A stretch of DNA of 64,000 nt from an uncultured Bacilli bacterium (GCA_934130045.1 CAKOXI010000002.1:728-64727); one strand, 5' to 3'; shown: positions 24,227 to 52,994, numbered from the stretch's first letter. The notes: generated by a model not told the origin, from the letters alone. Program-made: numbers and translations.

Positions 24227-26569
24227 ATGATAATAAAATTATTACTTATATTATTATTTAATATAATATATAGTTTAAATAATTATAGTAATTTAATAGA
24301 TATTGTTATAATTAACATTATCCTTTTTTTTATTGAATTTATAATAATAAATGAAAAAATAATAATAAGTAAAAAACACATATTAATTTCTCTAATTATA
24401 TCTATAATTATTTTATTTATAAATAAAGCTAATTTTATATATGGTTATGATAGTAAAAATATAGAGATAATAGGAAATGACTTTACCATTGATTCACTTT
24501 ATATAAATGATTCAAAAGTTAAGTTAAATGATTATGAAATTTATAATCAAAATCCGTATGATATTTATAATAAATTAACAGAATATTATAAATTAGAAAA
24601 TATTAATTATTATTATTTTAATACTGAAAAAGCTCATAGTATAGTTATTAATTTTGAAAAGGATAAACAAGATTATGATGTATTAATCAATGATGAAAAA
24701 ATAAAAATTAATAAGAGTACTGTAGATAAAAATTCAGATTATTACAAAGTTTATGATAATTATTATACTTATAAAATAGATAATATAAATTATTCTAATA
24801 ATAAAAAAATTATTAATATTATAATTAGCTTTATATTTATTAATATTATTATATTATCAGTTATAAACTCGATTAATAAAAAAGATGTATCTAAATTATT
24901 TTTATTATTTAGTTTATTTATATTAGAATTTAATAGTTATATTAATATATCCGTAATTTACAAAAGTATTTTATTTATATTATTTTATTTTATATCAAGA
25001 ATAATTAGAAAAAATATTAATATAGAATTATTAAGAAAAAAATTTTTAAAAGAATATTTAGCTAGTTTAATTATAAGTTTTCAATTTATAGGTACTATTT
25101 TAATGGATAACAAAATAAATATAAATTTAATAATTTTATATTTATTATTAAGTATTTTAATATTTATTGTAATAATAACTTTAGAAAATTTAAAATTAAA
25201 TTATATTTTAGTAAACAAAAATCAAAATAGTACTTTAAAGACAAAAATAATTTTATTTATGATACCATTAATTGCTTGCATATCATATTTAATTATTTAT
25301 AAAACATTTATATTAACAACTGATGGTAGTATGCAACTTAATGAAATAAAAAATAATTTAATTACTAATTGGCATCCATTTTTTCATACTGTAATTTTAA
25401 AGATTTTTTATAATATTAACAATAATTTAAATTTATTTATTATTGTAAGAATTGTAATAGTGAGTTTATTAATATCAAGTATTTCTACATATTTTATAGA
25501 TAAATATGTAAATAAAAAAATGATTTATATATTAGTTTTTATAATTTGTATAAATCCTATTTTTAGTATTTATATTATATCTTTATTAAAAGATGTTGAT
25601 TTTATAATATTTTTTATAATGTTAACTTTTTTAATTATTAAATACCTTAATAATGACTTTAAAGTCATGGATTATTTTTATTTACTAATATCACTAATAT
25701 TTATAGGTATGTTTAGGCACAATGGAATTTATATTGCGGTTATAATGATCATTGCTCTCTTTATAATTTTTTATATAAAAAAGGATATTAAGTTATTAAT
25801 AAGTATGATAATTTGTTCATTCTTTTTAATATTTTTAAATACATTTTTTTATAATTATTTAGAAATAAAACCAGGTATAAAAAATGTTGATATTGCGGCT
25901 TTAGCTCATGGATTGCAAACTATTTATATAGAAAATAATGATTGTAAAATAAAAGAAATATTTACTGATTATAGTTCTTTTGAGTTAAAAGACAATTATT
26001 CTAAATATAATATAGATGTATTATTACATTATAATAATATTCAATTAAGAAATATGGATATAAATAAGTTAGAATTTATGAACATTTATTTAAAAAATTT
26101 ATTTAAGTATCCTAATATTTTAATTAAAGATAGATTAAATGGAACAAATATATTATGGGATATATTTAGTAGTGATAAAATTCAAACTTATAATTATCAA
26201 ATAATAGAAAACGAATTTGGTTATAGTAATTATGAAAAAAATAAAATAAAAATATCTCAAAATAAATTATCGAACATTATAGAAAAAATAATTATGTACG
26301 AATCCACAAATAAATTTTTAAATTTTATATTTTTTAGAAGTGGTATATATTTATCTCTTATGATTATTTTAACAGTTAGTAATTGGAATAAAAAAAATTT
26401 ATTTATTTTGTTTCCAACAATTATTTATATATTAACTTTATTTATATCATTACATCATCAATCATATAGATATGTAATGTTTATGCCATTTATTTTTATA
26501 ATATATTTATTAAATATTTTGGCAAATAATAAACAAAATGTAAATAAATGTATAGTAGTAAGGAAATAG
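24227..26569 (+). CDS. Large polytopic membrane protein (780 aa), function unknown; GT-C-like glycosyltransferase is only a guess
   Basis: More than 12 predicted TM helices with two soluble inserts. Only 19 nt downstream of gpmI, with no terminator between. No motif I can assign with confidence. Confidence 0.5.
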   Translation: MIIKLLLILLFNIIYSLNNYSNLIDIVIINIILFFIEFIIINEKIIISKKHILISLIISIIILFINKANFIYGYDSKNIEIIGNDFTIDSLYINDSKVKLNDYEIYNQNPYDIYNKLTEYYKLENINYYYFNTEKAHSIVINFEKDKQDYDVLINDEKIKINKSTVDKNSDYYKVYDNYYTYKIDNINYSNNKKIINIIISFIFINIIILSVINSINKKDVSKLFLLFSLFILEFNSYINISVIYKSILFILFYFISRIIRKNINIELLRKKFLKEYLASLIISFQFIGTILMDNKININLIILYLLLSILIFIVIITLENLKLNYILVNKNQNSTLKTKIILFMIPLIACISYLIIYKTFILTTDGSMQLNEIKNNLITNWHPFFHTVILKIFYNINNNLNLFIIVRIVIVSLLISSISTYFIDKYVNKKMIYILVFIICINPIFSIYIISLLKDVDFIIFFIMLTFLIIKYLNNDFKVMDYFYLLISLIFIGMFRHNGIYIAVIMIIALFIIFYIKKDIKLLISMIICSFFLIFLNTFFYNYLEIKPGIKNVDIAALAHGLQTIYIENNDCKIKEIFTDYSSFELKDNYSKYNIDVLLHYNNIQLRNMDINKLEFMNIYLKNLFKYPNILIKDRLNGTNILWDIFSSDKIQTYNYQIIENEFGYSNYEKNKIKISQNKLSNIIEKIIMYESTNKFLNFIFFRSGIYLSLMIILTVSNWNKKNLFILFPTIIYILTLFISLHHQSYRYVMFMPFIFIIYLLNILANNKQNVNKCIVVRK

Positions 26570-31748: not shown

Positions 31749-31922
31749 ATGGAATATATAAAAGAATCAAATAATCAGGAATATATAGAAAATATGATAG
31801 TATTTTTAATGGATCAAGCTATGAAATATAAAGGTAATAATCCTAAAATGTATGATGGCTATATTATTTTAGCACATGATCTTTTAAAAAAGTTAAAGAA
31901 AGAAAGTGATGCAAATGAATGA
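31749..31922 (+). CDS. Possible small protein, 57 aa (not on the ORF track)
   Basis: ATG at 31749 preceded by aggtga. Open to TGA at 31920-31922. Overlaps the start region of the next ORF in another frame. No motifs. Confidence 0.3.
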   Translation: MEYIKESNNQEYIENMIVFLMDQAMKYKGNNPKMYDGYIILAHDLLKKLKKESDANE

Positions 31923-33651
31923 AAAAAATAAGGAATTATATTTTGATGGTTTTAGTAAAATATTAAAATCGTTAAAAGATGGTCTTAATTTAAATAGTGT
32001 TAATTTGGATGACTTTATAACTGGTATAAATGAATATAGCAATATAAATTTGCAAGATATAATAACTTATATGTTATATTGTTTTGAATTAATCGAATTA
32101 ACTGGTAAATGGAAATTGAAAAAATTAATAAAATACGAACATTTTATTAATAATATGGAAAATATTTATAATGAAATTTTTTGTAATCAAGAGTCAACAT
32201 TTAATAATAAGGTTATTGCTGCTACCAGTTTTGGAAATATAATTGCGAAAACAATTAATTATAATGTTGAATTAGAAATAGAAAAAGTATTAGATAATTT
32301 CATTAATTGTATAGATAAGAAAAATATTTATTTAAAGAATAACGAACTTACTTTACTTAGAGGAAATTTATATTGTCAAATTTTTTATGTGTTAAATGAT
32401 AATAAAGATGTAAATGATACTATGAAAGATTATTTGGAAAAGTTAACTAAAATATTTGATCATCAAAAATATATTAATAATGCCAATAAATTTTATAGTG
32501 AATTGTTAAATCATGAAGGTATAACATTTGATAGCTTAAATAATTTATTATTATACAATGCATATAATAGAATAGATATAGATAAAATAACAACTAAAAA
32601 AATATTAAAGATTTTATTGAATAATTATAAAGATAGTTTTTTTGATAAGGAAATTTTTATATATTTAATAAAGAATATAATAAATACTTTATTAGAAGAA
32701 AAAAATATTCAAGCTAATACAGAAATATTATTTGATGATGTAGATAATACTGATAATTATATTTATTTAAATTATAATAAAATTGATTATAATTTAAGTA
32801 ATAATTTGAATTTTATAAAAAAATTATTTTATGATATTAATATGATGGATTATAGAATAAATAAAGAAAAATATCAGTATTTTAATTTATTAGAAATAAA
32901 AGATAATTATATAAAAAATAAATTAGATTCTAATGATACTGTTATTAATTTTGAAAACACAATTAAGTTTATAAGTATAGAAGAATTTAATAAATTTATA
33001 AAAGAAATTGATGAATTAACATATAAAAATATGATTAATATTACTTTAGAAAATGTAAAAAAATTGTATGATACTTTAACAAATAAAGAATATGAAGATA
33101 TTAAAGTTACTAATACAGAATTATTTAATGCATGTTATAATTCATTAGAAATAAAAGCTTTATTAGATGAATCTGAATTGCTTAAAATAGAATACAATGA
33201 TTTAGGAGTTTATAAAAATATAAAAGATTTATTAATGGAAAAATATGATAATCAAAATGGTGAAAATAAATTAAATAATAATTTATATAAAGATATTATT
33301 AATTCACGTGATACAAGTATTTCTAGTTTATTAAATGATTATTATTCACTTTTATTAATTGATACAACTGATACTGGTGTTATAAAAGAAAAAGAAAATA
33401 TACTAAAAAGTATATTGCCAGATTTATTAAAAGAAAAAATATTATTTTGTGGTAATATTCCAACACAAAAATTTGATGAAATCTATAATGAATATATAAA
33501 TCCATGTATAAAAAAAATATCACAGAATAGGGTTAATAATAAAGAATTTGCTGATACTAAGGAGTTTTTGAATTATGAAAAAAGTAATTCAGATAATTAT
33601 TTTGGTATTTGTAAATTGCAAGAGATATTGGAACAATATAAAGAAAACTAA
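31906..33651 (+). CDS. Hypothetical soluble protein, about 580 aa
   Basis: Long uninterrupted ORF, N/K/I/E-rich, with no TM and no recognisable motif. The true start may be ATG 31909 or 31915. Confidence 0.5.
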   Translation: MMQMNEKNKELYFDGFSKILKSLKDGLNLNSVNLDDFITGINEYSNINLQDIITYMLYCFELIELTGKWKLKKLIKYEHFINNMENIYNEIFCNQESTFNNKVIAATSFGNIIAKTINYNVELEIEKVLDNFINCIDKKNIYLKNNELTLLRGNLYCQIFYVLNDNKDVNDTMKDYLEKLTKIFDHQKYINNANKFYSELLNHEGITFDSLNNLLLYNAYNRIDIDKITTKKILKILLNNYKDSFFDKEIFIYLIKNIINTLLEEKNIQANTEILFDDVDNTDNYIYLNYNKIDYNLSNNLNFIKKLFYDINMMDYRINKEKYQYFNLLEIKDNYIKNKLDSNDTVINFENTIKFISIEEFNKFIKEIDELTYKNMINITLENVKKLYDTLTNKEYEDIKVTNTELFNACYNSLEIKALLDESELLKIEYNDLGVYKNIKDLLMEKYDNQNGENKLNNNLYKDIINSRDTSISSLLNDYYSLLLIDTTDTGVIKEKENILKSILPDLLKEKILFCGNIPTQKFDEIYNEYINPCIKKISQNRVNNKEFADTKEFLNYEKSNSDNYFGICKLQEILEQYKEN

Positions 33652-48780: not shown

Positions 48781-49020
48781 AAAAATATATAAAAAAAGAC
48801 CAAAAGCGAAAAAAAGTTTGCTATAAAATTTTGAGATTTATTTTTGTAAAAAATCTAAAAAAATTAAAAATTTAAAAAAACAAAAAATCTAAAAATTTGA
48901 AAATAGTGAAAAAAATTAAAGCGAGTTTTTAGAAAATATAATGAAAATAAGCAAAAAAAATTTTAAAAAAATGAAAAATGTCAAATATGTAAAATAAAAA
49001 ATATTGAAAAATAAGGGCTA
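48781..49020 (+). other. Long strand-asymmetric A-rich tract in a divergent intergenic region
   Basis: About 240 nt dominated by A-runs of 4-9 nt on the + strand, with recurring words (aaaaaatctaaaaa occurs twice; also aaaaatttaaaaaaa and aaaaaaaattttaaaaaaa). Confidence 0.8.
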
Positions 49021-49063
49021 ATTTTGTCAATACCTAAAAGTTAAAAAAGTTTCGAACATTTGA

Positions 49064-49092
49064 TTGACAACCAAGGTATAAGTTACTATAAT
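49064..49092 (+). promoter_or_regulatory. Sigma-A-type promoter of nrdD
   Basis: ttgaca (49064-49069), 17-nt spacer, tataat (49087-49092). Confidence 0.65.
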
Positions 49093-49129
49093 TAAGGTGT
49101 AATAATAATGATGATAGGAGTGAGTTTTA

Positions 49130-51442
49130 ATGTCAGTAGTAGAAGAAGAGCGTAAGATTACTTTAAAAGTTGTCAAAAGGGATGGGAAAAAGGTTGATTT
49201 TAATGGAACAAAGATAGCCTTGGCTATAAAAAAAGCTTTTGATCATATTGATAAACTTGATGATGGTGAAGAAAATAACAGCACAGGATATACTGAAAAG
49301 GATATAAATAATATATATAAAACCGTTATAACAAGAATTGAAAAAGAATATGCTGATGAAGACAAAATAAAAATTGAAACAATTCAGGATATGATTGAAG
49401 AAACTTTAAAGAAAAAAGGTTATGACGATATATATGAAGAATTTTCATCTTATAGAGAAAGAAGAAATCAATCAAGAAAACTATTTAGTGATGAAAAGAA
49501 AATGCATAAATTTTTAAAAACAATTGAAGGCTTAGGTTTAAAATCTGCAAGTGAAGATAATAACAAAAGAGAAAATGCCAATGTTGATGGTGATACTGCA
49601 ATGGGAACAATGCTTCAATATGGTAGTACTGTTTCTAAAGAATTTGCTAAGTCTTATTTAATGAAGAAAAAATTTGCAGAAGCACATGATAATGGTGATA
49701 TTCATATTCACGATATGGATTTCCTTCCTATGGGAACTACAACATGTATGCAAATAGATTTAAATAAATTATTTAAAAATGGTTTTTCAACAGGTCATGG
49801 ACATTTAAGAGAACCAAATGATATTATGTCATATTCAGCTTTAGCAGCAATTGCTATTCAATCAAATCAAAATGATCAACATGGTGGTCAAAGTATACCA
49901 GCATTTGATTATTATTTAGCTCCTGGTGTTTTAAAAACTTTCAAAAAACAATTTAAACAAACTATTAGCGATTTGTTAGATTATTCTGGGTTTGAAACTT
50001 TTATTAACATGAATAGTGTTGCAAAAGAAATTGATAAATTAAATAGTATTGAAGTTGATTTAGCAGACTTTGAAAAATTTATTAAAAATAATGAAGAAGT
50101 TGGTAGATTATTTAGAATAGCTTATGATAAAGCATATAGTAAAACTGATAGAATAACATATCAAGCTATGGAAGCATTCGTTCATAATTTAAATACAATG
50201 CATTCAAGAGCAGGTGCTCAAGTACCTTTTTCATCAATAAATTTTGGAACGGATACATCTAGCGAGGGAAGAATGGTAGTAAAAAATTATTTACTTGCTG
50301 TTGATGCTGGCTTAGGTCAAAGTGAAACTCCTATTTTTCCAATTTCGATTTTTAAAGTAAAAGATGGTGTTAATTTTAACCCAGGAGAACCTAACTATGA
50401 TTTGTTTAAATTATCTTGTCGAGTATCTGCAAAGAGATTATTTCCAAATTTCTCCTTTATAGATGCACCATATAATTTACAATATTATAAAGAAGGAGAT
50501 TTTACAACTGAAGTTGGTTATATGGGATGTCGTACTAGAGTTTTAGGTAATGTAGTTGATCCTGATAAGTCAGTTACTCCAGGTCGTGGTAATCTATCAT
50601 TTACTTCTATAAATTTACCACGTTTGGGTATAAAACATGGTATTGTAAGTAATGAAAAAACAGACTTAGATGGTTTCTTTAGTGAACTTTCAGACTTAAT
50701 GGATTTGGTAAAAGATCAATTATTAGAAAGATTTGAAATTCAATGTAATCGTCATGTATATAATTTTCCATTTTTATTAGGTCAAGGTATTTGGATGGAT
50801 TCAGAAAAATTAAAACCAAATGATAAACTAAGAAAAGTATTAAAGCATGGAACATTAAGTATCGGATTTATAGGTTTAGCAGAATGTTTAAAAGCATTAG
50901 TTGGTAAACATCATGGTGAATCTGAAGAATCACAAAAATTAGGTAAAAAAATTATTGGCTTTATGAGAAAAAAATGTGATGAGTACTCAGAAAAATATAA
51001 TTTAAATTTCACATTGTTAGCAACACCTGCTGAGGGATTATCAGGAAGATTTGTAAATATTGATAAAGCAATTTATGGAAAAATAAAAGGTGTTACTGAT
51101 AGAAATTATTACACAAATTCATTCCATATTCCAGTTTACTATAATATTTCAATTGCTGATAAACTTCATCTTGAAGCTCCTTATCATGCATTAACTAATG
51201 CAGGACATATTTCCTATATTGAATTAGATGGAGATCCAACTGAGAATGTAGAAGTATTTGAAAAAATTGTTAGAATTATGAAAAAAGAGGGAATTGGGTA
51301 TGGCGCAATTAACCATCCAGTAGATAGAGATCCAGTTTGTGGTTATGTCGGAATAATAAAAGATGTTTGCCCAAGATGTGGAAGAAAAGCTTATGAAGCT
51401 GTTAGTGTTGATAAATTAAAAAATTTAGATTGCTGTAAATAA
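49130..51442 (+). CDS. nrdD: Anaerobic ribonucleoside-triphosphate reductase large chain (class III RNR), lacking the glycyl-radical segment
   Basis: N-terminal ATP-cone (VVKRDGKKVDFNGTKIALAIKKAF). Core motifs HIHDMD, GGQSIPAFDYY, NLSFTSINLPRLG, ATPAEG. C-terminal Cys cluster PVCGY...VCPRCGRK...DCCK, then a stop before any RxxGY motif. Confidence 0.9.
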   Translation: MSVVEEERKITLKVVKRDGKKVDFNGTKIALAIKKAFDHIDKLDDGEENNSTGYTEKDINNIYKTVITRIEKEYADEDKIKIETIQDMIEETLKKKGYDDIYEEFSSYRERRNQSRKLFSDEKKMHKFLKTIEGLGLKSASEDNNKRENANVDGDTAMGTMLQYGSTVSKEFAKSYLMKKKFAEAHDNGDIHIHDMDFLPMGTTTCMQIDLNKLFKNGFSTGHGHLREPNDIMSYSALAAIAIQSNQNDQHGGQSIPAFDYYLAPGVLKTFKKQFKQTISDLLDYSGFETFINMNSVAKEIDKLNSIEVDLADFEKFIKNNEEVGRLFRIAYDKAYSKTDRITYQAMEAFVHNLNTMHSRAGAQVPFSSINFGTDTSSEGRMVVKNYLLAVDAGLGQSETPIFPISIFKVKDGVNFNPGEPNYDLFKLSCRVSAKRLFPNFSFIDAPYNLQYYKEGDFTTEVGYMGCRTRVLGNVVDPDKSVTPGRGNLSFTSINLPRLGIKHGIVSNEKTDLDGFFSELSDLMDLVKDQLLERFEIQCNRHVYNFPFLLGQGIWMDSEKLKPNDKLRKVLKHGTLSIGFIGLAECLKALVGKHHGESEESQKLGKKIIGFMRKKCDEYSEKYNLNFTLLATPAEGLSGRFVNIDKAIYGKIKGVTDRNYYTNSFHIPVYYNISIADKLHLEAPYHALTNAGHISYIELDGDPTENVEVFEKIVRIMKKEGIGYGAINHPVDRDPVCGYVGIIKDVCPRCGRKAYEAVSVDKLKNLDCCK

Positions 51443-51461
51443 ATTTGAAAGGGGAATTTAT

Positions 51462-51641
51462 ATGAAAGTAGAAGAAAAAAATGTTATATCAAATGATAAA
51501 GAAAAAAAGGTTGGAGAAGGTGTAGGATTCGAAAGAATTAGAAGAATTACTGGCTATTTAGTTGGAACAGTTGATCGATTTAATAATGGTAAACGTGCCG
51601 AAGAACATGATCGTGTAAAACATTCATTAGGAAATATTTAA
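51462..51641 (+). CDS. Stand-alone 59-aa glycyl-radical domain peptide of class III RNR (not on the ORF track)
   Basis: SD gaaagggg 7 nt before the ATG. Residues FERIRRITGYLVGTVDRFNNGKRAEEHDRVKH carry the canonical NrdD C-terminal glycyl-radical motif. It ends 1 nt before the nrdG start. Confidence 0.75.
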   Translation: MKVEEKNVISNDKEKKVGEGVGFERIRRITGYLVGTVDRFNNGKRAEEHDRVKHSLGNI

Positions 51642-51642
51642 A

Positions 51643-52203
51643 TTGAAAATAAGACTTGCTGGCAATTTACAAAGGGATAGCATAGTAGATGGTGAAGGTC
51701 TTAGAACAGTTATTTGGACACAAGGATGTTCTCATAATTGCCTAGGTTGTCATAATCCAGAAACTCATGATTTTAATGCTGGTTTTTCTGTAGATATTGA
51801 AGAAATAAAACAAGAAATAAAAAATCTTCAATATCAAGATGGAATAACATTTTCTGGTGGCGATCCTTTCTTTCAAGCTAGTGCTTGTGCAGAAATTGCT
51901 AAATATGCTAAAGAATTAGGACTTAATATATGGAGTTATACAGGGTATACATATGAGCAGCTTTTAGATATCTCTAAAAAAAATCCTAAGATATTAGAAT
52001 TTTTAAAAAGTATTGATGTTTTAGTAGATGGTAGGTTTGTTTTGACACAAAAAAGTTTAAATGTTAAATTTAGAGGTTCTACAAATCAAAGAATTATTGA
52101 TGTAAAAAAGAGTTTAAATACTGGTGAGACTTGTATAATAACAAAATATGATGATATCGATAATATGAATTTATTAAAGAAAAGGAGAGAATTATATATA
52201 TAA
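51643..52203 (+). CDS. nrdG: Anaerobic RNR activating radical-SAM protein
   Basis: DGEGLRTVIWTQGCSHNCLGCHNPETH (CxxxCxxC cluster), GITFSGGDPF. TTG start. Confidence 0.9.
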   Translation: MKIRLAGNLQRDSIVDGEGLRTVIWTQGCSHNCLGCHNPETHDFNAGFSVDIEEIKQEIKNLQYQDGITFSGGDPFFQASACAEIAKYAKELGLNIWSYTGYTYEQLLDISKKNPKILEFLKSIDVLVDGRFVLTQKSLNVKFRGSTNQRIIDVKKSLNTGETCIITKYDDIDNMNLLKKRRELYI

Positions 52204-52262: not shown

Positions 52263-52994
52263 ATGGAACGTAAAAACATAATTTTGAAAATAATAATATT
52301 AATTTTATTTATATCAACACTAGTAGTTGTTAGCATAAATAAAACAAAAAAACAAAGTTTTAGCGATGCTTTAAAATTTAAGGAAGAATATGAAAGTTTG
52401 AATGATAAATTAAATTCAGATGGCAATAGCTATAATAATGTAGAAATACCCGAAAATAATCCAATAAAGTATATAAATGTAAAAGAAGCTATAAATATTA
52501 TAAAAAATGGTGAAGGGGTAATTTATTTTGGAGCTAATTGGTGTCCTTGGTGTAGAAATGCTGTAGGAGTTTTATTAGATGCTGCATCAAATAAAATGCT
52601 TGATACTATTTATTATCTCGATATGGATAAAGTTAGAAATAAATTTAGTGTAGTTGATGGGGAAATTACTAAAATTCAGGTAGAACAAGATGGATATTAT
52701 GAATTATTGGATTTGTTAGATGAAGTATTAAATAAAGATACATATAAAATTACTGATTCAGATGGTAATGTTTATGATACTAATGAGAAACGAATATATA
52801 TGCCATTTGTGATTGCGGTTAAAAATGGAAAAATATTAAGTAATCATGTTTCAACAGTGGAACTTAATGATAATCAAACTAAATATAGTTATTTGACTGA
52901 TGAACAAAAAAATGAATTATTTAAAATTTATATAAAAATAATTGAATCAATTGAATTAGAAGATTCTTGTGGAATTGATACAAGTTGTGATTAA
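52263..52994 (+). CDS. Membrane-anchored thioredoxin-fold protein (CPWC active site)
   Basis: N-terminal TM. VIYFGANWCPWCRN is a CxxC thioredoxin-like motif. Confidence 0.6.
   Translation: MERKNIILKIIILILFISTLVVVSINKTKKQSFSDALKFKEEYESLNDKLNSDGNSYNNVEIPENNPIKYINVKEAINIIKNGEGVIYFGANWCPWCRNAVGVLLDAASNKMLDTIYYLDMDKVRNKFSVVDGEITKIQVEQDGYYELLDLLDEVLNKDTYKITDSDGNVYDTNEKRIYMPFVIAVKNGKILSNHVSTVELNDNQTKYSYLTDEQKNELFKIYIKIIESIELEDSCGIDTSCD

Follow-up and report, generated by a model that had tools for sequence, protein, structure and literature searches.

The window analysed here, a stretch of 64,000 nucleotides from an uncultured Bacilli bacterium (GCA_934130045.1 CAKOXI010000002.1:728-64727), carries an nrdD gene for a class III (anaerobic) ribonucleotide reductase whose radical-bearing loop is encoded by a small gene of its own, located between nrdD and the activase gene nrdG. 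By sequence, the system is a class III reductase that lacks one defining feature of this class, the radical glycine on the catalytic chain. To our knowledge, in all characterised glycyl radical enzymes this glycine lies within the catalytic polypeptide. We infer from the sequences that the two chains assemble and that the small one is activated, and we consider it highly probable that they constitute a functional, formate-type enzyme of two polypeptides in which the small chain is obligatory. As the large chain is devoid of a radical glycine, the small chain would be the sole radical source.

The large gene occupies positions 49130-51442 (all coordinates in the window refer to the + strand). 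It is an open reading frame (ORF) of 770 amino acids (aa) which terminates in ...VCPRCGRKAYEAVSVDKLKNLDCCK-TAA (in a longer stretch, ...DPVCGYVGIIKDVCPRCGRKAYEAVSVDKLKNLDCCK-TAA); its last residues are NLDCCK, and no RxxGY glycyl-radical motif was found anywhere in the 770 aa. A spacer of 19 nt (51443-51461) follows, in which a Shine-Dalgarno (SD)-like sequence, GAAAGGGG, is present at 51447-51454, 7 nt 5' of the ATG of the small gene (51462-51641). The latter comprises 59 codons and encodes MKVEEKNVISNDKEKKVGEGVGFERIRRITGYLVGTVDRFNNGKRAEEHDRVKHSLGNI (segment ...GFERIRRITGYLVGTVDRFNNGKRAEEHDRVKHSLGNI), so that the radical loop RRITGY...RVKH stands on a separate ORF and not on the barrel chain. 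nrdG (51643-52203, 186 aa, TTG start) begins 1 nt past the stop of the small gene. Compared with nrdD, the small ORF is shifted to the +1 frame, which is shut upstream by a TAG at 51426-51428. The initial annotation of the window had described this arrangement, from the missing motif of the first ORF to the SD of the second and the position of nrdG, and every coordinate proved correct upon re-reading.

When both products were compared with NrdD profiles, as had been proposed, complementary matches were obtained. On the 562 positions of Pfam NRDD, the large chain covered 1-531 and the small chain 533-562, which makes them exact complements; on the 746 positions of NCBIfam PRK07111, they covered 3-715 and 707-744, respectively. 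The large chain scored 1029 bits against PRK07111 (cutoff 764) and 627 bits against Pfam NRDD, whereas the score of the small chain against Pfam NRDD was 32.3 bits (cutoff 26.2), obtained on the last 30 profile positions only. Against the Prevotella copri NrdD (8p23), the large chain aligned with residues 8-705 (phmmer, E=3e-177) and the small chain with residues 707-740. The glycyl radical domain of the P. copri enzyme extends over residues 676-739 and consists of a zinc site, the buried Gly711 loop and, past a short helix, a tail on the surface (PMC11226230). The cut is located inside this domain, just past the zinc ribbon, between P. copri positions 705 and 707 (in construct numbering, which is the native numbering +4). 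What had been annotated as a detached glycyl-radical domain is indeed a conserved gene for the glycine loop, but the detached part consists of this loop and the C-terminal tail only, the zinc-binding half remaining on the large chain. The mass of the small chain is 6.8 kDa and that of the large one, estimated from its length, roughly 88 kDa.

The large chain contains an ATP-cone (aa 13-113), the NxN flap (RENANVDGDT), the alpha/beta barrel, the zinc ribbon and a relic tail described below. Residue roles and P. copri numbering were taken from the structural study of that enzyme (PMC11226230), and the correspondence was established by manual counting on the alignments. In this way, Cys467 of the large chain was found to match P. 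copri Cys416, the thiyl radical residue of the finger loop, and Cys206 to match Cys171, the second cysteine, on the first barrel strand; Asn488 corresponds to Asn435, which marks the formate-dependent type, and Glu635 to Glu581. In the small chain, Gly31 (codon 51552-51554) aligns with the radical Gly711, and Tyr32 and Arg39 correspond to Tyr712 and Arg719, two residues by which the P. copri radical domain is linked to the NxN flap and the substrate (PMC11226230). As judged from these alignments, all catalytic residues of the P. copri enzyme are present, shared out over the two chains. The small chain itself begins with a variable leader rich in Lys and Glu (aa 1-17), followed by the conserved GEGVGFERIRRITGYLVGTVDRFNNGKRAEEHDRVKH; among 92 homologues, 13 columns are invariant, including those of Gly31 and Tyr32. 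Of the 81 small chains compared, 12 have a Cys-rich extension past RVKH (YDCSCCGE, MSCEKCGK, ANKTCC), with L004, L005, L037, L041, L053, L060, L061, L063, L069 and L077 among the carriers; such an extension could be metal-binding or redox-active.

The zinc-ribbon segment, D734-P-V-C737-G-Y ... C747-P-R-C750-G-R752 (51329-51385, delimited by alignment to P. copri NrdD), deviates from the usual four-cysteine ribbon. The window has RDPVCGY where P. copri has RCLDCGY, with an Asp at the first ligand position, and the pattern DxxC...CxxC offers three cysteines and one Asp. This Asp was found in all 84 large chains examined, whether split or belonging to the three fused genes introduced below, while the phage locus L088 has a Cys. 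Since fused and split chains share the Asp, the altered zinc site is a feature of the clade and is not tied to the split. The replacement of the first Cys noticed in the initial annotation is therefore real, but the proposal of a remodelling that accompanies the split, with the terminal CC as new ligands, was rejected as a general feature: among 81 tails, two cysteines are present in 48, one in 15 and none in 15. The terminal CC is part of the relic, and not evidently a new ligand pair.

The same gene order, nrdD(770)-19 nt-small(59)-1 nt-nrdG(186), with an identical small protein, was recovered from at least eight independent metagenome assemblies of the same species. Over the 81 nt of the junction, the eight assemblies differed by 0-1 substitutions and by no indel, so that nothing in them fuses the frames; this agrees with the frame and the TAG, and with the earlier remark that no single point error accounts for the split. 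Two assemblies of the window's species show extra breaks within the large nrdD (L092, 490-2830; L096, 1-2067), the junction with the small gene being unchanged. One of these two has a coverage of about 2.4x according to its contig name, and the extra breaks are probably assembly errors.

Relatives were then represented by one genome per GTDB species, which gave 80 loci with large chains 70-92% identical to that of the window. The gene is split in 76 of them and fused in three (L025, L027 and L055), and one locus ends too early; among the 79 species with readable junctions, 96% are thus split. The division is therefore known from at least 76 related species in addition to the window's own, and the relatives are far from being fused throughout. 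With the window counted in (n=77), the small gene lies in frame 0, +1 or +2 relative to the large one in 29, 24 and 24 cases, respectively. The spacers vary in sequence and measure about 1-47 nt in the window's clade, with up to 95 nt in L085. The large gene ends with TAA or TAG in these relatives, and nearly all small genes start with an ATG preceded by an SD-like sequence (GTG in L033). The use of three frames, the variable spacers and the presence of own starts and SDs indicate that these are two independently translated genes and exclude a conserved frameshift or read-through signal.

Selection acting on both parts was estimated by the ratio of nonsynonymous to synonymous substitution rates (dN/dS; pooled Nei-Gojobori). 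For the small-chain core (GEGV...RVKH, 81 gene pairs) the value was about 0.075, for the last 46 large-chain codons before the tail 0.11, and for the relic tail about 0.33, these being pooled pairwise estimates at a saturated dS of about 1.4-1.5. By this measure, the small gene is under strong purifying selection. The view that the true or ancestral gene is fused, and that the copy in the window was broken by faulty sequencing or assembly or by recent decay into a pseudogene, is effectively refuted and keeps next to no credence: undoing the split requires more than one change, as it would in an old pseudogene, and the low-coverage assemblies L092 and L096 contain further breaks, but eight independent assemblies have one junction in common, 76 of 80 species are split in all three frames with an own start codon and ribosome-binding site, both parts have low dN/dS and the catalytic residues are intact.

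A recoding event (frameshifting, read-through, bypassing or protein splicing) could also yield one NrdD of normal length. In the 29 of 77 cases where both genes share a frame, read-through of one stop is conceivable, and in an Eggerthella phage, described below, an interrupted small ORF would require a -1 shift. No single conserved signal could nevertheless serve a family in which the three frames are equally used, the spacers range from about 1 to 95 nt and vary in sequence, and the small genes have starts and SD-like sequences of their own; in the window, the TAG at 51426-51428 closes the frame of the small gene as well. We therefore regard recoding as very unlikely. A split intein or trans-splicing was rejected on length, an 18-aa tail and a 17-aa leader being far too short for the usual sizes of intein halves.

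The end of the large chain revealed a further element. Residues K753-K770 (KAYEAVSVDKLKNLDCCK), encoded with the TAA by 51386-51442, form a degenerate paralogue of the small-chain segment GEGVGFERIRRITGYL. The consensus of the tail, [KRH][EA][GFY]E[GAS]V[PS][VIL]E[KR][LIV][KN], resembles the small-chain core GEGV[GK]FERIRR, and the best ungapped alignment between tail and small chain fell in one register in 79 of 81 genomes, with a mean BLOSUM62 score of 15.9 against 1.3 for shuffled tails. In the window, this register places ...KLKNLDCCK over ...RIRRITGYL, with Cys768 at the position of the radical glycine; in the 81 relics, this position is occupied by Cys in 33 and otherwise mostly by Leu or Asn, Val occurring also. 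Furthermore, when large-only, fused and small-only sequences were aligned together by MAFFT, the free and fused GEGVxFERIRRIT segments landed on the relic tail. This mixed alignment is poor for modelling, and local MAFFT runs behaved differently and were unreliable; it was counted as an independent sign of homology. On the strength of these comparisons, the large chain ends in a degenerate radical-loop copy that lacks the glycine. It was not described in the initial annotation, which had judged the linker residues unlike NrdD; those of the large chain past the zinc ribbon are in fact this decayed loop.

A longer glycine-less relic was observed in a lineage of higher guanine-plus-cytosine content (GC 0.53-0.61). 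For example, GEAVSVEKLRQLGVYKNYNSTTIGYHGDPAEERDRQPN is collinear with GEGVGFERIRRITGYLVGTLDRFNNAKRAEEHDRVKH up to an AEExDR motif. The homology rests on this collinearity and on E-values near 0.005-0.008 (BLASTP, E=0.005; hhalign, E=0.008 over 36 columns). The long pseudo radical loop, LG[VLC][YW]...T.GY.G.P.EE.DR.PN, was located at large-chain C-termini in L081 (4800-4955), L085 (2-217), L086 (1-513) and L087 (3-1061), and the spacer to the small gene measures 25-95 nt in this lineage. Among four sequences, 25 positions are invariant, and this conservation suggests that the long relic has a function of its own.

The overlapping homologous ends of the two chains point to a fission by tandem duplication and complementary decay, since no overlap is expected from a nonsense mutation combined with an internal start. 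A fused nrdD would first have undergone a tandem duplication of its 3' end; the upstream copy would then have lost its glycine and persisted as the relic tail, and the downstream copy would have acquired a start codon and a ribosome-binding site. Such a scenario implies a past stage in which an intact NrdD coexisted with a free radical loop, that is, a true spare-part stage. The split would afterwards have been kept as a large clade of uncultured gut Bacilli or Mycoplasmatota-like bacteria diversified; it is found in other lineages too. Rare deletions between the two repeated GEGV segments would have fused the gene again.

The three fused genes were placed on a tree built by neighbour-joining only, from 719 barrel columns, with the C-terminus excluded and the root set on split genes of the Eubacteriales type. 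They were never monophyletic in 100 bootstraps, and the nearest neighbours of each were split genes; the fused L025 is 84% identical to the split L009 and 76% identical to the fused L055. The junctions of the fused genes read CGRVEDE-VKFERIRR, CNRTEADGVKFERIRR and CGRTEDN-VKFERIRR; in length and sequence, they are what a deletion between the EGV of the tail and the GEGV of the small chain would leave. Three independent re-fusions within an ancestrally split clade are the most parsimonious interpretation of these data.

The pairing of the two genes is itself conserved. In each of the 82 split loci whose large chain is complete (81 and the phage L088), and also in the partial contigs L085-L087, the small gene directly follows a glycine-less large gene. 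nrdG is not beside the small gene in the split clades L045/47/56/67/71/76 and L037/39/58/63; in L045 (6340-7234), the next downstream ORF (210 aa) does not contain the CxxxCxxC motif of the radical S-adenosylmethionine domain of NrdG. As nrdG lies elsewhere in these two subclades, the conserved unit is the large-small pair rather than the three-gene operon.

This bears on the possibility that the small protein is a spare, comparable to GrcA, for an intact NrdD encoded elsewhere, the truncated large chain being inactive or having another role. The duplication scenario does imply that an intact NrdD and a free radical domain once coexisted, and the absence of nrdG beside the pair in two subclades would suit a spare. 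On the other side, the small gene is always found directly behind a glycine-less large gene, and the strong constraint that has preserved all the catalytic residues together with the ATP-cone and the flap would not be expected of an inactive remnant. In addition, a scan of the ten other ORFs in the 64-kb window that reach 450 aa or more revealed no second reductase. A spare-part role is, in our view, improbable.

In the window, the three genes appear to be expressed together. A promoter-like sequence, TTGACA-17 nt-TATAAT, is located at 49064-49092, 38 nt 5' of the nrdD start, and matches the consensus at 12 of 12 positions; it is a predicted site, called by a consensus scan only, which does not prove function. 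The same kind of scan detected no promoter-like site above 9/12 and no terminator-like site at the nrdD/small-gene and small-gene/nrdG junctions, so that the three genes are read as one operon. The intergenic region 48804-49129 is very A-rich and contains repeated aaaaatctaaaaa-like units, with the perfect promoter consensus at its end. No NrdR box was matched around 48800-49130, and counts across the whole window were at chance level. The nrdG product belongs to TIGR02491 (157 bits, cutoff 126). In most relatives, the nrdG start overlaps or abuts the stop of the small gene, which suggests translational coupling from the small gene to nrdG.

Taken together, these features are consistent with the following mechanism. 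nrdD, the small gene and nrdG would be co-transcribed from the 49064-49092 promoter. The 770-aa chain would supply the ATP-cone, the substrate flap, the ten-stranded barrel with the thiyl Cys467 and the zinc ribbon, and the 59-aa chain the buried Gly31-Tyr32 loop and the surface tail. NrdG, translated right behind the small chain, would abstract a hydrogen from its Gly31. The loop would then insert into the barrel next to Cys467, held non-covalently through the contacts used in the fused enzyme (Tyr32 and Arg39 to the flap). Oxygen cleaves glycyl-radical proteins at the glycine. A plausible benefit of the division is that oxygen would destroy the small chain only, leaving the large chain reusable.

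Three published observations make such a mechanism easier to conceive. In P. copri NrdD, the radical domain shows high mobility; it can be disordered as a unit and nevertheless gains the radical in that state (PMC11226230). The activase of pyruvate formate-lyase (PFL) can place the radical on a 7-residue peptide (PMC13450708), and YfiD arms oxygen-cleaved PFL in trans, an example of a free radical domain serving a glycyl radical enzyme (PMC8683613).

Several points weigh against the two-chain enzyme or against an advantage of its division. When modelled alone with the 92-sequence alignment, the small chain formed a single helix (23-50), which differs from the loop of the solved NrdD, although this model is of low confidence (predicted local distance difference test, pLDDT, 68; predicted template modelling score, pTM, 0.30) and was regarded as uninformative rather than as a sign of a helical fold. 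A chimera of the large and small chains, folded from the single sequence without an alignment, reached a pLDDT of 34, too low to be of use. The limited reach of the search for a second reductase and the saturated dS behind the pooled dN/dS values also count here. The three re-fused relatives indicate that a fused form is viable, and so the benefit of the split is unproven. Finally, the relic tail is conserved and might, in theory, occupy the groove into which the small chain has to fit; alternatively, it may serve as a placeholder or help assembly, or be a remnant in slow decay.

The strongest alternative accepts the two-chain enzyme and denies that its division serves any purpose. The split would be selectively neutral, an accidental product of duplication followed by complementary decay, and would contribute neither to oxygen tolerance nor to regulation. 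The overlapping relic is the classic footprint of a fission by duplication and degeneration, three lineages re-fused the gene without apparent harm, and leader and spacer are poorly conserved. Against neutrality, a deletion between the GEGV repeats restores the fusion and yet 96% of the species (76/79) stay split at saturated dS; moreover, the relic tail is partly constrained (dN/dS about 0.33) and the long relic has its 25 invariant positions in four sequences. Neither point is decisive, and the retention of the split despite the short way back is compatible with neutrality or advantage alike. We give the neutral origin somewhat less than an even chance.

A more ambitious version of the two-chain reading, which we put forward tentatively and consider rather unlikely to hold as a whole, makes a joint claim: that the small chain is an exchangeable radical-bearing subunit and that it evolved through a spare-part stage. 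In that case, NrdG would activate the free 59-aa peptide, which would be a better substrate than a loop flipping out of the barrel. The activated peptide would plug into the large chain and, after exposure to oxygen, the peptide alone would be cleaved and a fresh one swapped in. The glycine-less relic tail would act as a placeholder, filling or guarding the vacant socket. If true, this would be the first glycyl radical enzyme with its cofactor-bearing element as a dissociable subunit by design, and a class III counterpart to the separate radical subunit of class I.

Small chains of this type are widespread. Queried against 5.8 billion proteins, the small chain had 7991 matches, the best 120 of which are all free-standing proteins of 48-70 aa. 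When 1.84 billion cluster representatives were scanned exhaustively with HMMER, 2062 matches were obtained, 685 of them at E<=1e-10; the best 150 of the 2062 are all free-standing (52-196 aa), with a Met start, RxxGY and a Gly near residue 29. In the databases, these small proteins are named 'hypothetical protein', 'nrdD protein' or 'anaerobic ribonucleoside-triphosphate reductase' (60 aa), and no dedicated family exists for them in Pfam or NCBIfam. The order of glycine-less large chain, small chain and nrdG was also found in a metagenome-assembled genome (MAG) of the Eubacteriales (GC 0.53), in three short contigs (GC 0.57-0.61) and in a low-GC contig on which a gene for the sporulation protein YunB is present as well.

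A truncated large chain with a downstream small radical-loop ORF is present as well in an isolated Eggerthella lenta phage. In this locus (L088, Eggerthella phage EL753P1, OP172808.1, 1685-5146), nrdD encodes 960 aa, with a LAGLIDADG/intein-like insert right after the 'YMGC' of the catalytic loop, and ends past the zinc ribbon with a relic-like tail (KEFEAVPEEY...). An ORF of 102 aa without a Pfam hit separates it from the small radical-loop ORF. The latter stops at ...GFERIRRI-TGA and resumes as LTTGYLTGSADRWNDAKKAELRDRVKHGK in the -1 frame; this break may reflect faulty sequencing, decay into a pseudogene or programmed frameshifting.

The surroundings of the operon are those of a chromosome: the window encodes DnaE, AlaRS, a topoisomerase subunit of the GyrB/ParE type and RNase Y, as well as a class A penicillin-binding protein, recognised by Transgly/Transpeptidase matches on its counterpart in L089. 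Its nearest relatives are MAGs of uncultured gut Bacilli/'Tenericutes', e.g. Candidatus Faecisoma, which we take to be the RF39 group. Directly 3' of nrdG, positions 52263-52994 encode a thioredoxin-like protein of 243 aa (Pfam Thioredoxin, 17 bits, under the cutoff), which has a WCPWC motif and a membrane anchor at its N-terminus and is kept in same-species contigs. Two long ORFs of 780 and 581 aa (24227-26569 and 31906-33651) have no Pfam match at E<=1e-5. In L032 (512-2788), a PFL-like glycyl radical enzyme (RVSGYAV) is encoded just 5' of the split nrdD.

With the single-chain NrdD/NrdG systems (the P. copri enzyme 8p23 and those of phage T4 and Thermotoga maritima), the pair shares the family, the ATP-cone, the NxN flap, the thiyl Cys, the second Cys, the formate-type Asn, the zinc ribbon, RxxGY and an adjacent nrdG. 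It differs from them in that the chain is cut one residue-equivalent past the zinc ribbon, the glycine loop and tail being the product of a separate gene, and in that the large chain bears a glycine-less loop relic and an Asp as first zinc ligand.

The initial annotation had compared the small chain to GrcA/YfiD. As in E. coli GrcA/YfiD and Y06I of phage T4, a small free protein is homologous to the C-terminal radical loop of an enzyme. Proteins of this type have a weakly conserved N-terminal part and are presumably activated by the activase of the parent enzyme and docked in trans (PMC8683613). A similar activation of the small chain by the parent's activase may be proposed from the position of its gene next to nrdG. 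The parent enzyme and the sequence family are different, the small chain being derived from NrdD: a Pfam scan at E<=1 matched PF13597 NRDD only, with no match to Gly_radical PF01228 (IPR011140), and NCBIfam gave NrdD models only. It is also shorter, with about 59 aa against 127 aa for E. coli YfiD, and its gene lies within an operon, between enzyme and activase. Above all, the parent of GrcA/YfiD keeps its own glycine, which makes the small protein a spare, whereas the adjacent large chain here has none, which would make it obligatory. The analogy thus holds for a free radical-bearing protein and fails for its use as a spare; more generally, the observation of the initial annotation was confirmed and its interpretation partly supported.

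Divided reductases of other classes are known. In Pseudomonas aeruginosa, the class II catalytic subunit is encoded by two adjacent genes, NrdJa and NrdJb, with the C-terminal functional module on the second chain (PMC9669993). The division into adjacent genes is similar, but that class is B12-dependent, the cut is elsewhere and the radical site is not separated. The parallel with class I is a functional one: there, the resting radical is located on a separate, smaller chain which docks on the catalytic barrel, as would be the case here, although the small chains are not homologous and a metal-generated radical with long-range transfer is used instead of a glycine placed directly in the barrel. 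Friedrich et al. reportedly described in 2007 a class Ia nrdA of Aeromonas phage Aeh1 which is split by a homing endonuclease gene and whose products reassemble into an active enzyme. That split is due to an inserted mobile endonuclease in one phage, has its cut at another place and does not separate the radical site, in contrast to the gene-free 19-nt spacer of the window and its occurrence in a large bacterial clade.

The initial annotation knew of no such arrangement for NrdD, and full-text searches of the literature likewise returned no description of a split NrdD, most subscription journals lying outside their coverage, so that priority elsewhere is not excluded. A review of June 2026 states that spare-part radical proteins are known for PFL only and for no other class (PMC13450708), and the Drennan group had speculated that they may exist elsewhere (PMC8683613).

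What is new here is a large natural family of class III reductases in which the radical loop is always carried by a small chain of its own. Should the two chains function as proposed, they would provide a natural 6.8-kDa substrate for the activase NrdG and a natural experiment on a radical domain leaving and re-entering its barrel. They would also make it possible to examine directly whether damage by oxygen is reduced when radical domains are modular, and would offer a parallel to the division of class I enzymes into two subunits. Furthermore, these large genes can be mistaken for truncated ones, and the synthesis of deoxyribonucleoside triphosphates may be scored in error as broken when the metabolism of these abundant uncultured gut bacteria is reconstructed.

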